From: Acidobacteriaceae bacterium
Lineage (GTDB): Bacteria; Acidobacteriota; Terriglobia; Terriglobales; Acidobacteriaceae
Direction: 5' to 3'
Length of the DNA stretch: 64,000 bases
NCBI GenBank assembly: GCA_035505395.1
Contig: DATJQW010000001.1
Coordinates: forward strand, 644-64,643
Positions within the stretch are counted from its first letter, which is position 1. Every line of letters begins with the position of its first letter. The notes below the pieces were generated by a model. That model worked only from the letters and a program-made list of their open reading frames with translations. It was not told the DNA's origin and made no database searches. Positions 3,060 to 40,945 of this stretch are shown piece by piece. The translations under genes and the position numbers were made by a program.

Positions 3060-3992
3060 GTGGTTCGCGTGCTCCGAAGTACGGCGCAATCCACACTCAA
3101 CAGCTTTTCCGCTGTACTCTTCCCCGCCGATTGCCGCGTCTGCGGCGTCCCGCTCGGCAGCTTCTCCCTTCTTCCCGTCTGTGCGTCCTGCTGGAATCAT
3201 CTTCCTCCACAACCGGGCACGCTCTGCGACCGATGCGGCGAGGCGTTGTCGTACGAACCTGATCTCACCACTGAAAAATCGCTCTGCCGCCCCTGCCGCA
3301 CGTCGGCACCGCCCTTCGAGAAGGCTGTCGCTTGGGGCCTCTACCGCGATGAACTGCGCGCCCTGCTCCACCTGTTGAAATACGACGGCATGCACCCCTT
3401 GGCGAAGCGCCTGGGCGCGCTCCTCGCCGATCCGGTACTCGCCATCTCTGATCTGCCCGCTGAGCTGGTCGTCGTGCCCGTTCCGCTCTTTGCCGGCAAG
3501 CGCCGCCAGCGCGGCTTCAACCAGTCGGAGCTCATCGCGCGTCATGCGATCCGTGCTCTCCGCCACCGCCGCACCGATCTGAACGTGCACCTGGCTCTCG
3601 ATGTCCTCGGACGTCACCGCGCCACGGAAAGCCAGGCCGGCCTCACCGCGCATCAGCGGCGCGAGAATCTCCGCGGCGCGTTCGTCGCGGCGCGCCCCGC
3701 GGCCGTTGCAGGGCTCCATGTGCTGCTCATCGACGACATTTACACCACCGGCGCCACGGCTCGCGCCTGCTCGCAGGCTCTTCGACGCGCCGGAGCCGCC
3801 AGCGTCTGCGTCGCGACCGTCGCTCGCGCGCAGAAAGAACAATGGCCGCACCGGGATTCGGCACAGCAGCACTTCGCTGCGCCCGAGATTCCTATGGAAA
3901 GGGATTTTGCTTTTTGGGATGAGGCCCGTACGGAGACCCTCCGTGGGCGCCTGAACAACAACTGGTCCGGACCGGCAATCCGGACCCGATAG
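3060..3992 (+). CDS. ComF-family protein (phosphoribosyltransferase domain)
   Basis: N-terminal Cys pairs CRVCG...CASCW and the PRTase motif VLLIDDIYTTGATA. GTG start. Confidence 0.85.
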   Translation: MVRVLRSTAQSTLNSFSAVLFPADCRVCGVPLGSFSLLPVCASCWNHLPPQPGTLCDRCGEALSYEPDLTTEKSLCRPCRTSAPPFEKAVAWGLYRDELRALLHLLKYDGMHPLAKRLGALLADPVLAISDLPAELVVVPVPLFAGKRRQRGFNQSELIARHAIRALRHRRTDLNVHLALDVLGRHRATESQAGLTAHQRRENLRGAFVAARPAAVAGLHVLLIDDIYTTGATARACSQALRRAGAASVCVATVARAQKEQWPHRDSAQQHFAAPEIPMERDFAFWDEARTETLRGRLNNNWSGPAIRTR

Positions 3993-38630: not shown

Positions 38631-39080
38631 TTACTGCGGCTGGCTCTGCGGCTGCGGCTGGTTGTCTCCGCCCTGCATGCCGTGGCGCCCGCGCCGCTCC
38701 TGCATCGCTTCGAATTTCTGCTTCTGCTGGTCGTTCAACACTGCTTCGATCTTCGCGTTGGAATCCTGCCGGATGCTCATCATCTGGCTCCGGCGATCCT
38801 CCCGCGACAGCGACTGGTTCTGCCACAATGTCTGCATCTTCTGGTCGCGATCCATCAGGATCGGCCGGATCTGGCTCTGCTGATCGGTGGTCAGGTCCAG
38901 CTGTTTCGTCATATGCGCCAGTTGCGTATCGGGATCCATGCGCCCGTGCTCGGGCGGACCCTGCTGTTGCTGCTGGCCGTTGTCCTGCGCCGGTGCTGTG
39001 TTGTCCTGCGCTCGCAGCGCTGGATTCATACAGAGCGCCAGCATTCCACCCAGCGCCATCGTCATCAATGTCTTCTTCAT
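38631..39080 (-). CDS. periplasmic Spy/CpxP-like (LTxxQ) protein
   Basis: Signal peptide ...NPALRAQ, Gln-rich, LDLTTDQQSQI and LNDQQKQKFEAM LTxxQ-type repeats. Confidence 0.6.
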   Translation of the reverse strand: MKKTLMTMALGGMLALCMNPALRAQDNTAPAQDNGQQQQQGPPEHGRMDPDTQLAHMTKQLDLTTDQQSQIRPILMDRDQKMQTLWQNQSLSREDRRSQMMSIRQDSNAKIEAVLNDQQKQKFEAMQERRGRHGMQGGDNQPQPQSQPQ

Positions 39081-39225: not shown

Positions 39226-39843
39226 TCAGTGCGATTTCCCGGCTCCGGCCGGGTGCGGGGGCATCGGCACCGGCGCCGAGCGCAGCCCGCAGCGCAGCAG
39301 ATCCGGCTCATGCTCATCCGGAGCCGGCAGGTACGCGTACGCGAAGATCGCCTGATACTGCGACTCCCCGGGATAATTGCACATTGGGCAGCTCGGATCG
39401 TAATTAATCGCGGGATGGTCTCGCATCGCCTCCGCCCATTGCTGCACCCCATGTGCCGGCACCGTAAGATATTGCGGGTCTGCTGGCATAGCGGTCGGCC
39501 GGTACGCAAACATAGGCCCTTTTTGCCGCTCTGCGTCCACCAGCGCCCCACCCCGCCCCGCCGAAGAGCGCCACAGCCAGCGGTTCCCCACCTCCGCGTA
39601 CCAGTGCGCGCTCGATGGTATGGGCCGCTCCAGACGGATGGCGTGCGCCGTTTTGTTCTCGATGCGGAACAGAAATCCGGGCCCCGCTCCAGGCGCCGCC
39701 TCCGCCAGATAACTCGCGGTCAGTGTGATCCCTGCGCAGGGCATGACCGTCGATTGTCCCGCGCGATGCTCCACGCCCGCGGAAATCGACCCTGCGCCGA
39801 TCGTCAGCATCAGCGGCAGGAGCACGTTGCGCAACAGCGCCAT
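39226..39843 (-). CDS. exported hypothetical protein
   Basis: 205 aa starting MALLRNVLLPLMLTIGAGSISAG (signal-like), inside track ORF 39226-40497. 14 nt downstream of the CYCXC gene. Confidence 0.6.
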   Translation of the reverse strand: MALLRNVLLPLMLTIGAGSISAGVEHRAGQSTVMPCAGITLTASYLAEAAPGAGPGFLFRIENKTAHAIRLERPIPSSAHWYAEVGNRWLWRSSAGRGGALVDAERQKGPMFAYRPTAMPADPQYLTVPAHGVQQWAEAMRDHPAINYDPSCPMCNYPGESQYQAIFAYAYLPAPDEHEPDLLRCGLRSAPVPMPPHPAGAGKSH

Positions 39844-39857
39844 CGTCGACTCGGGAA

Positions 39858-40340
39858 TCAGCTCTTCCCCAGCGCGTTCAGGTCGATGGACCGGTATTCG
39901 CCGCGCTCGATCCCCGCGCGAATCTGCTGCGGAGTCCAGCCGCGTTTCGTCATCCGGTACGCGTAGGCTTCCTCGGCCGCGCAGGTCTCGCAGATCGCCC
40001 CGTGCGTCCCCTCGAAGCAGCTGTGCAGGCTGGTGTGCCCCAGCTCGCGATCGCAGCGGCAATAGCAGGGAAGCTGATACAGGACCCTCGGGATCTGCGC
40101 CGCTTCCCGGTACACCGCCACCTGCCACTTCTTCTGGAAGTACGGTCCGGTAAGTTGTTGCCCTGAAAGAATCGGCGGCAGCACCTGGCCCGGCGCCGGC
40201 GGGCTGGCGTGATAGGCGGGAATGTCCGCCTGGGGATCGGACCATTGCGCCCGAACGCCCGTCAGGGTACTCGCCGGGAGAACGTACGCGGCCACGATCA
40301 GCAGGCCCAGTGCCATGCTGCCGACCATTCGCTTCACCAT
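39858..40340 (-). CDS. CYCXC / PCYCGC-motif family protein
   Basis: LPCYCRCDRELGHTSLHSCF...GAICETC Cys cluster after an N-terminal TM/signal segment. Start at ATG 40340 behind GGAG. Confidence 0.7.
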   Translation of the reverse strand: MVKRMVGSMALGLLIVAAYVLPASTLTGVRAQWSDPQADIPAYHASPPAPGQVLPPILSGQQLTGPYFQKKWQVAVYREAAQIPRVLYQLPCYCRCDRELGHTSLHSCFEGTHGAICETCAAEEAYAYRMTKRGWTPQQIRAGIERGEYRSIDLNALGKS

Positions 40341-40443
40341 AAACGCTCCAGAAACGCTCCAGGCCTCTATCGTACCAGGCGCGTTTTCCACCGGGGAAAG
40401 CTGCGATCACTCCCGCAACTTGGCAGGTCAGGCTGAAAAAGGC

Positions 40444-40480
40444 AAAAAAAGACGGCACGAACGGTATTTTGTCCGTGCCG
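40444..40480 (-). terminator. strong intrinsic terminator inside the 5' leader of the CYCXC cluster (or 3' end of an sRNA)
   Basis: Minus-strand reading CGGCACGGAC aaaatacc GTTCGTGCCG, a 10-bp stem with one G-U pair, followed by TCTTTTTTTGCCTTTTT. Confidence 0.7.
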
Positions 40481-40628
40481 GGAGGCCAGTGACGCAACCT
40501 GGAACCAGCCGGGAATTCTGAGTCACCGGTCTGGTTACTAACCCTTCACTCATTCTGATGCCCATTGCGGCCATCAGGTAGCATTCAAACTTTTCGGGAA
40601 CCCGAAGGACAGGCCCCTCCACTCGAAA
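40481..40628 (-). promoter_or_regulatory. candidate structured leader RNA (riboswitch-like multi-hairpin domain), class unknown
   Basis: Minus-strand reading: closing helix GGAGG..CC (40620-40612) with GGCCTCC (40487-40481) encloses three hairpins: TTCGG gttc CCGAA; CTGATG-11 nt-CATCAG; AACCAGaCCGG-13 nt-CCGGCTGGTT (40536-40503). The terminator follows immediately. Confidence 0.45.
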
Positions 40629-40629
40629 C

Positions 40630-40658
40630 AGTGTATCTCTGAAATCGTTCCCGCACAA
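40630..40658 (-). promoter_or_regulatory. candidate promoter of the structured leader
   Basis: Minus-strand TTGTGC (40658-40653), 17 nt spacer, TACACT (40635-40630). Confidence 0.35.
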
Positions 40659-40732
40659 TCCTCATTTACACTCAAATACATTCGAAAGTTGTATACGACT
40701 CGTACGATTTCGTCCCTGGAGGGACTTTTGGC

Positions 40733-40945
40733 ATGTCTGCCTATGCTGATTCTGCCGAAGATCAACGCCAATCTCGCTCCCGTCGCGGCTTGCGCATGCT
40801 CGGAACAGGTTTGCTGATCGCCGGTTCCGCACTCTTTGGCGGCCTCGCGGTAGCGCTTTGGGATCGAAAATCTCTGGCGAAGCTGCGCCAGCCGTCCCAT
40901 GTACCGCAAATCAGCTCTTCTCCTGAAGACGCAACGCTCGATTAA
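40733..40945 (+). CDS. small membrane protein, hypothetical
   Basis: 70 aa with one TM helix (LGTGLLIAGSALFGGLAVALW). GGAGGG 9 nt upstream. Codon bias weaker than in neighbouring genes. Confidence 0.4.
   Translation: MSAYADSAEDQRQSRSRRGLRMLGTGLLIAGSALFGGLAVALWDRKSLAKLRQPSHVPQISSSPEDATLD

Follow-up and report, generated by a model that had tools for sequence, protein, structure and literature searches.

The 64,000-nucleotide (nt) stretch of DNA from an Acidobacteriaceae bacterium analyzed here (the window) carries on its minus strand an element (positions ∼40624–40444) that very probably is an independent small RNA (sRNA) gene, present as a single copy in members of the Acidobacteriaceae. The element lies between a divergent open reading frame (ORF) for a small membrane protein and a gene of the CYCXC family, and comparison with relatives defines its predicted boundaries and hairpins, an invariant sequence block and its independence from CYCXC. 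The best overall explanation is probably that the RNA acts in trans by base pairing, and we lean slightly toward anti-Shine–Dalgarno pairing as its mode of action. A first-pass annotation of the window had read this region as a transcription-attenuating riboswitch leader for CYCXC, a reading that fails when relatives are compared; the sequence features that it named all occur at its coordinates, and its fallback, in which the region is an undescribed class of RNA or an sRNA standing alone, agrees with the evidence.

An invariant block next to a terminator defines the family

For comparison, 80 genome loci were gathered by means of the CYCXC protein and not by the sequence of the element. When the window intergenic sequence was used as the nhmmer query, matches were found in 55 of the 80 loci, and their common core is a sequence block together with the terminator. 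Full-length alignment was limited to the six closest loci, and the remaining loci match over the 3′ 70–90 nt only. The window and 54 of the genome loci each contain one exact copy of an 18-nt core, TGCGTCACTGGCCTCCCG; in the 55th (L006), a contig end cuts the element and the terminator alone is kept. Searching metagenome contigs for the 22-nt block gave at least 120 more loci with one copy each, and the element is known from at least 175 loci, including one in cultured Granulicella rosea DSM 18704 (L019), where an sRNA of ∼115 nt is predicted at positions 3808–3926 of the locus (contig NZ_FZOU01000002.1).

The invariant block, GUUGCGUCACUGGCCUCCC, lies between the second hairpin of the family (HP2) and the terminator. 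In alignment A1, the 19 columns TTGCGTCACTGGCCTCCCG (T61–G79) are invariant, compared with a mean column identity of 51%. Among the matches listed, 168 distinct 60-nt upstream segments stand beside this one block (173 loci). Across 55 to 175 homologs, the predicted promoter, the hairpins at 40577–40555 and 40536–40503, the block, and the terminator keep their positions. From the predicted start, the order of parts in the family is a first hairpin (HP1), a linker (A)AAGUUU, HP2, (A)CAAGUUGCGUCACUGGCCUCCC, a terminator hairpin (CGGCAYGRAC...GUYCRUGCCG), and 6–9 U. There are two hairpins per RNA across the family, differing in sequence, and three in the window's clade; because of this extra, variable 5′ hairpin region, the predicted RNA is ∼180 nt long in that clade as against 100–135 nt in most relatives. 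The HP2 loop GACUGAGAAUUC is conserved inside the window's clade only.

Two parts of the structure were found as the first-pass annotation had described them, namely the large hairpin AACCAGACCGG/CCGGCTGGTT with its 13-nt loop and, at 40480–40453, the 10-bp GC-rich hairpin followed by TCTTTTTTT, which a terminator scan confirmed. Comparison with Rfam 15, which the annotation had proposed as a check, assigned the region to no known family. Among 4227 models, cmscan gave no match in the window at the gathering score, and at E ≤ 10 it reported nothing within 40250–40850 except a chance CRISPR-DR fragment. At 17 homologous loci, the matches at the gathering score were to transfer-messenger RNA (tmRNA) and transfer RNA (tRNA) only, both outside the element, and at E ≤ 10 the L055 element gave nothing but chance fragments. 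In full-text literature searches, nothing was found that describes an Acidobacteriaceae sRNA, the block sequence, or the regulation of a CYCXC/PCYCGC gene.

The hairpins and the terminator covary

A covariance model (R1) was made from 48 sequences and a hand-drawn three-hairpin structure, followed by realignment. Its sole match in the 64-kb window is at 40566–40444 (80.5 bits, E about 1e-15). Each carrier locus has one strong full-length match, the extra ones being the cut L006 copy and weak hits on the antisense strand of the terminator (E ≥ 0.04), and there was no match in 25 CYCXC-carrying loci, 22 of them from more distant Acidobacteriota.

In the R1-based alignment, 92.4% of the cells are paired, compared with 27–39% when the partners are slid by 1–3 columns. 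Compensatory changes occur in 16 of 21 pairs, a count inflated because the structure guided the alignment, but the slid-partner control remains far lower; the observed covariation score was reached by 0 of 500 shuffles. These changes affect all six modeled pairs of HP1 (79% of cells paired), all five of HP2 (94% paired), and five of the ten pairs of the terminator stem (99.6% paired), where GC is replaced by CG and UA by CG, for example. Covariation of the terminator is also seen in a plain MAFFT alignment. The terminator alone was recovered by RNAalifold from the MAFFT-only alignment because MAFFT misaligns the variable hairpins. The window hairpin at 40577–40555 was matched to HP1 by eye only, and the fold of the window region is modestly better than that of shuffled sequences (z = −1.78). 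Thus, of the three-hairpin junction in the first-pass annotation, the hairpins exist and two of them covary throughout the family, but the junction itself is not conserved; likewise, the alignment that it had called for shows covarying hairpins and a covarying terminator but no conserved 5′ strand for the proposed closing helix (P1).

A predicted promoter, conserved in position, precedes the first hairpin

In every one of the 55 loci but L009, a predicted promoter lies upstream of the first hairpin, and its distance from that hairpin is constant. It is made up of a −35-like box, a 17-nt spacer, and a −10 box that is often extended (TGnTAnnnT). The TTGTGC and TACACT hexamers that had been proposed for the window are present, 17 nt apart, and their position is conserved among homologs. 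In the window's clade, the promoter has the form TTGTRY-17-TACRST: TTGT[GA][CT] stands 17 nt from the −10 box in 7/7 genome loci of the clade, the same −35-like box and spacer recur in further metagenome relatives, and the −10 box is kept as TAC[AG][CG]T. The Granulicella-type promoter is TAGATT-17-TGnTAnnnT. From the spacing to the −10 box, the sRNA is predicted to start at ∼40624–40622. Given the divergent ORF on one side and the CYCXC gene on the other, the minus-strand terminator must end a transcript begun within the intergenic region.

A further observation concerns the −100 to −35 region of Granulicella-type sRNA promoters, where GTGAAAAAGGGTATAT is followed after ∼12 nt by AAATATGAAttGAAGTAGATTT upstream of the −10 box (L011, L022, L049, L051, L055, and ∼20 others). 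This pair may represent an UP element or the site of an activator, in which case the sRNA would be subject to specific regulation.

The block may act as an anti-Shine–Dalgarno seed

The block has the properties expected of a conserved, accessible, single-stranded seed. In partition-function folds, the unpaired probability within it is highest for the CUCC bases (0.58–0.81), and the CCUCCC at its 3′ end is the exact complement of a GGGAGG Shine–Dalgarno sequence. Occlusion of ribosome-binding sites is proposed because CCUCCC both complements GGGAGG and lies where the block is most accessible.

In the proposed mechanism, a σ70-type promoter would drive an RNA of ∼180 nt in the window and ∼100–135 nt in most relatives, consisting of two or three hairpins (structure kept, sequence free), an unpaired (A)AGUUGCGUCACUGGCCUCCC, and a Rho-independent terminator. 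The CCUCCC in the C/U-rich 3′ part of the block would pair with Shine–Dalgarno regions in the mRNAs targeted, with specificity coming from the GUUGCGUCACUGG beside it. The expected target sites at ribosome-binding sites would be of the GGGAGGCCAGUGACGCAAC type. Pairing would block the initiation of translation or alter mRNA stability, and the hairpins and terminator would serve as stabilizing and chaperone-binding modules. We infer transcription, its start site, the pairing mechanism, and the kind of target from these sequence features.

The element persists when its neighbors change

The first-pass annotation had correctly placed the CYCXC start codon (ATG) at 40340, and the product of this gene matches PF13798 (PCYCGC) and NF041379 (CYCXC family). 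In an sRNA-anchored metagenome scan, CYCXC directly followed the element in the same orientation at 71 of the 99 loci with enough downstream sequence (∼72%, among the matches listed). The remaining 28 comprise 4 loci with a gene for a membrane glycosyltransferase-like protein of ∼500 amino acids (aa) and 24 with unrelated genes, such as an HU/IHF-like one. Where both flanks are present (53 loci, again among the matches listed), 23 have CYCXC and an upstream pterin dehydratase gene, 15 have CYCXC only, 12 have the dehydratase only, and 3 have neither, which amounts to adjacency in 38/53 loci for CYCXC versus 35/53 (66%) for the dehydratase. The two adjacencies decay similarly, as they would if an independent gene lay within an ancestral gene order. 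In two loci (L025 and L041), only the sRNA has been inverted, the dehydratase and CYCXC genes on either side being unaffected. An independent transcription unit would be expected to persist in this way, through changes of either flank and through its own inversion.

We propose that CYCXC has its own promoter element after the terminator. Of 117 loci (among the matches listed), 89 have a TAnnAT sequence in the 50 nt before the CYCXC start, compared with 23 of 117 in a within-gene control, and the TACGAT box of the window is kept in L001, L002, L200, L138, and L156. The spacing of TAnnAT to the start is bimodal within the same gene family, at either 6–8 nt (∼30 loci) or 15–35 nt, and CYCXC mRNAs with the 6–8-nt spacing are probably leaderless.

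On the other side of the element, the dehydratase gene of Granulicella-type loci ends ∼50–130 nt upstream of the sRNA promoter. In the window's clade, the divergent gene at 40733–40945 (plus strand) stands between the element and the dehydratase gene.

Points against an independent pairing sRNA, and other explanations

Several observations weigh against an independent sRNA that acts by pairing. The frequent same-strand adjacency to CYCXC, together with a spacer from the U-tract to the CYCXC start that is as short as 15–30 nt in about a dozen loci, leaves room for terminator read-through into CYCXC, and both the promoter and the start site of the sRNA are predicted from conservation. The middle of the block is partly paired (unpaired probability 0.24–0.53), with partners that vary among homologs, and at 19–24 nt the invariant stretch is longer than a typical seed and could be a protein-binding site instead. 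When the 64-kb window was scanned for duplexes with the seed, only the antisense strand of the gene itself rose above the shuffled-seed null. The seed also did no better than shuffled seeds in the start regions of six conserved neighbor genes (CYCXC, dehydratase, response regulator, small membrane ORF, 205-aa, and Spy-like genes) and of the glycosyltransferase-like gene, and tmRNA had no consistent complementarity to it. This failed target search is weak evidence because the scan covered ∼64 kb of genome and the flanking loci. No hfq gene was found in the window or flanking-locus sequence, a result that is uninformative on the rest of the genomes.

A type I toxin–antitoxin system formed with the 70-aa divergent ORF was considered and rejected, as this ORF is beside the sRNA in only ∼35 of 175 loci (among the matches listed). 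The start region of this ORF paired about equally well with the seed and with shuffled seeds, the difference being −0.66 kcal/mol (n = 11).

The element might also be an sRNA and a leader at once, with its own promoter and usual termination, and with regulated or leaky read-through adding to CYCXC expression; a protein on the invariant block could possibly control this read-through and so couple the two genes functionally. We consider this unlikely. The short spacers would fit it, as would the position of the block directly against the terminator stem and the 15 loci, among the matches listed, in which the same-strand sRNA-CYCXC order is kept with the upstream neighbors lost or shifted to the other side (L132, L142, L180, and L189, for example). 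However, adjacency to CYCXC is barely above that to the dehydratase and resembles synteny decay on both sides, the terminator is strong (10 bp, GC-rich, at least 7 U) and is followed by the CYCXC −10 box in most loci, and 24 loci, among the matches listed, have unrelated downstream genes.

We give an equally small chance to a sequestering or scaffolding sRNA, in which the invariant 19–24 nt and the terminator stem would form the site of an RNA-binding protein and there would be no seed. The unusual length of the invariant stretch points this way, and so do the conserved sequence of the terminator stem itself (CGGCAYGRAC), the recurrence of an (A)AGUU(U/G) motif after each hairpin, and the lack of an mRNA target in the window and neighbor start regions. 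Known sponges such as CsrB, however, carry many sites, whereas each RNA here has a single copy of the block; CCUCCC is exactly the anti-Shine–Dalgarno type of many pairing sRNAs, and the target search counts for little at the scope given above.

It is improbable, though it would be of greater novelty, that the block is a site where a trans-acting protein or RNA disables the terminator, making the element a new factor-dependent attenuator as well as an sRNA that controls CYCXC as a redox- or metal-stress gene, or that the block targets one universal cellular RNA and not an mRNA regulon.

There is very little probability left for the riboswitch of the first-pass annotation, in which a hairpin junction closed by P1 would bind a ligand that sets terminator formation and thereby controls CYCXC. 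The layout of promoter, structured RNA, intrinsic terminator, and gene is indeed that of terminating riboswitches (TPP, cobalamin, SAM-I, yybP-ykoY, guanidine-I, and fluoride), and CYCXC is most often the next gene in the unbiased scan described above. In contrast to these riboswitches, the element is without a conserved aptamer core, P1, or antiterminator, and the gene that follows it varies and has a proposed promoter of its own. No Rfam match was found in the window or in the 17 homologs. The hairpins covary, yet their loops, lengths, and flanks, and junction nucleotides are not conserved, and what is conserved is a linear, unpaired stretch of ∼19–24 nt by the terminator.

The two strands of P1, GGAGGGGCC and GGCCTCC (40487–40481), are present in the window, and the helix is drawn in its minimum-free-energy fold, but the helix is neither conserved nor above chance and was rejected. 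Its 5′ strand is missing from most homologs, most family members beginning downstream of the place where it would be. Even among the closest relatives, the strand is lacking in L002, L003, and L007: at the 5′ ends of the window's clade, GGAGGGGCC in the window corresponds to UGAGGAGC in L001 and to CGGAAGC in L002, with no counterpart in L003 or L007. None of the 55 sequences had a 5′ part more complementary to the block than its shuffled versions (best duplex, 200 shuffles each), and on average the real 5′ parts did worse than the shuffles (mean z = +0.62; window z = +0.48). If anything, pairing of the block with the 5′ part appears to be avoided in the family, and a short GGAG:CUCC contact might still form in the window's clade.

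No competitive or conserved antiterminator was found either in truncated transcripts or in full transcripts with the terminator forbidden. When the 3′ arm of the terminator was blocked, the best fold was on average 12.5 kcal/mol worse; in it, the block paired only weakly and locally with the 5′ arm of the terminator, and there was no conserved upstream partner. In addition, another gene lies downstream in 28% of loci (among the matches listed), the element is inverted in two, the CYCXC −10 box follows the terminator, and ∼30 loci look leaderless. The comparison thus removes a false lead, in that the locus is no new riboswitch class.

A terminator of the upstream gene with chance hairpins, or a small protein-coding gene, can be set aside despite the 76- and 111-aa ORFs that overlap the region and the nearby dehydratase gene end of Granulicella-type loci: these ORFs have no Pfam match, in agreement with the annotation's view that the region holds no credible ORF, a coding role is excluded because the block has no synonymous or third-position variation and indels in the terminator loop break the frames, and a mere terminator is at odds with the conserved promoter, the covarying hairpins, the divergent gene that intervenes before the dehydratase in the window's clade, and the persistence of the element without the upstream gene.

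Relation to known sRNAs

Having weighed these alternatives, our best reading is that the proposed trans-pairing sRNA represents a new family within a familiar class of regulators and introduces no new regulatory principle. By mechanism, its closest known counterparts would be the C/U-rich anti-Shine–Dalgarno sRNAs RoxS/RsaE, CcsR, and αr14; the likenesses given here are drawn from general knowledge. RoxS/RsaE of the Firmicutes (Rfam RsaE) are C-rich anti-Shine–Dalgarno sRNAs with several C-rich regions, partly in loops. The element resembles them as a stand-alone gene of ∼100–150 nt with its own promoter and Rho-independent terminator, conserved within a lineage, and with an unpaired C-rich core complementary to GGAGG-type ribosome-binding sites. 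Unlike them, it has one linear 19–24-nt block just 5′ of the terminator, belongs to another phylum, and has no cmscan match.

The CCUCCUCCC-motif sRNAs of Alphaproteobacteria include CcsR1–4 (the "cuckoo" family) and αr14 (NfeR1), in which the motif lies in hairpin loops and is often repeated; the genes are often in tandem or cotranscribed with a small protein gene. As in these RNAs, a pyrimidine anti-Shine–Dalgarno CCUCC is the most conserved part of an RNA of simple hairpins. The element differs in that it is single-copy, with one motif, in an unpaired stretch that separates a hairpin from the terminator, and in that it has no Rfam match.

Acido-1 and Acido-Lenti-1 are sRNA-like motifs of Acidobacteria and Rfam families. 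They share with the element the phylum and a presumed nature as noncoding hairpin RNA, but neither was matched at E ≤ 10 (window and L055) or at the gathering score (17 loci). The lack of any Rfam model match places the element outside RoxS/RsaE, CcsR, αr14, Acido-1, and Acido-Lenti-1.

Acidobacteriaceae are among the most abundant bacteria of soil and peat, and in the literature searched we found almost nothing on their post-transcriptional regulation. The element offers an entry point to sRNA regulation in the phylum and is a candidate for a new Rfam family; for this abundant and poorly studied soil lineage, it is apparently the first sRNA candidate that is both well defined and widely conserved.

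Features of the locus and its surroundings

The features of the element in the window, together with the tmRNA genes found at related loci, are collected in Table 1.

Table 1. Coordinates of predicted features of the element and its surroundings
Feature	Position	Strand	Basis or remark
−35-like hexamer TTGTGC	40653–40658	−	Sequence and conservation in the clade
−10 hexamer TACACT	40630–40635	−	17-nt spacer from TTGTGC
Predicted sRNA transcript, ∼180 nt, long form	40444–40624	−	Bounded by conserved promoter and terminator
Clade-specific 5′ extension	40586–40620	−	Sequence variable inside the window's clade, absent elsewhere
Purine-rich GGAGGGGCC (5′ strand of P1 in the first-pass annotation)	40620–40612	−	Inside the 5′ extension
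Small hairpin UUCGGGUUCCCGAA	40606–40593	−	Inside the 5′ extension
Linker AAAGUUUG	40593–40586	−	Inside the 5′ extension
Hairpin CUGAUG-GCCGCAAUGGG-CAUCAG at the presumed place of HP1	40555–40577	−	Minimum-free-energy fold
Single-stranded linker AAUGAGUGAAGGGUUAGU, the semi-conserved AAGUUU linker of the family	40537–40554	−	Alignment consensus AAnnTTTT between HP1 and HP2
Hairpin AACCAGaCCGG/CCGGCUGGUU, 13-nt loop (HP2)	40503–40536	−	Covariation
Invariant single-stranded block GUUGCGUCACUGGCCUCC, continued by C at 40480	40481–40498	−	Putative seed with CCUCCC
Rho-independent terminator: 10-bp stem CGGCACGGAC/GUUCGUGCCG, 8-nt loop, then UCUUUUUUU	40444–40480	−	Terminator scan
Extended −10-like box TGgTACGAT, proposed CYCXC promoter	40369–40377	−	Boundary of the next transcription unit, outside the sRNA
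tmRNA	L014:4678–5032; L018:4578–4926; L029:4536–4891; L055:4956–5312; 6 other loci		RF00023

The divergent 70-aa ORF that flanks the element (40733–40945, plus strand) is predicted to encode a single transmembrane helix and matches neither Pfam nor NCBIfam; it is 36–85% identical among the ∼35 of 175 loci that have it (among the matches listed). Its GGAGGG Shine–Dalgarno sequence lies within a palindrome, GTCCCTGGAGGGAC (40712–40725), which is the source of the chance match to CRISPR-DR12. The 5′-untranslated region of CYCXC (40341–40362, minus strand) contains the 11-nt CTGGAGCGTTT twice in tandem, so that its Shine–Dalgarno sequence is doubled, and the close relatives L001 and L200 have a single copy.

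In about one-quarter of the genome loci, including L011, L022, L030, L049, L053, and others, a gene for a multi-pass membrane protein of ∼500 aa lies between the sRNA and CYCXC, 20–60 nt after the sRNA terminator. The protein was called glycosyltransferase-like by eye, from conserved DPNPPL and RGFDYAYDARSY motifs.

A tmRNA gene (RF00023, 93–192 bits) was found downstream of CYCXC in 10 of the 17 loci scanned, usually within ∼1 kb and in L016 and L049 several kb away; the 64-kb window has no tmRNA match.

Several loci with an Acidobacteriaceae gene order (L028, L038, L043, L049, L051, L055, and L061) come from metagenome-assembled genomes whose titles name other phyla or classes (Sphingomonas, Acetobacteraceae, Rhodanobacteraceae, Gammaproteobacteria, and Dormiibacterota). 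Most of these loci carry the sRNA, and the foreign titles are probably due to mis-binning.

Downstream of CYCXC in the window are genes for a Cys-containing protein of 205 aa without a family match (39226–39843, minus strand) and for a Spy/CpxP-like periplasmic protein (38631–39080, minus strand), the latter with a weak match to NF007769 (3.7e-08) that is far under the curated cut-off. The order CYCXC, 205-aa gene, and Spy-like gene is preserved in the window's clade, which hints at a cluster for envelope or redox stress.

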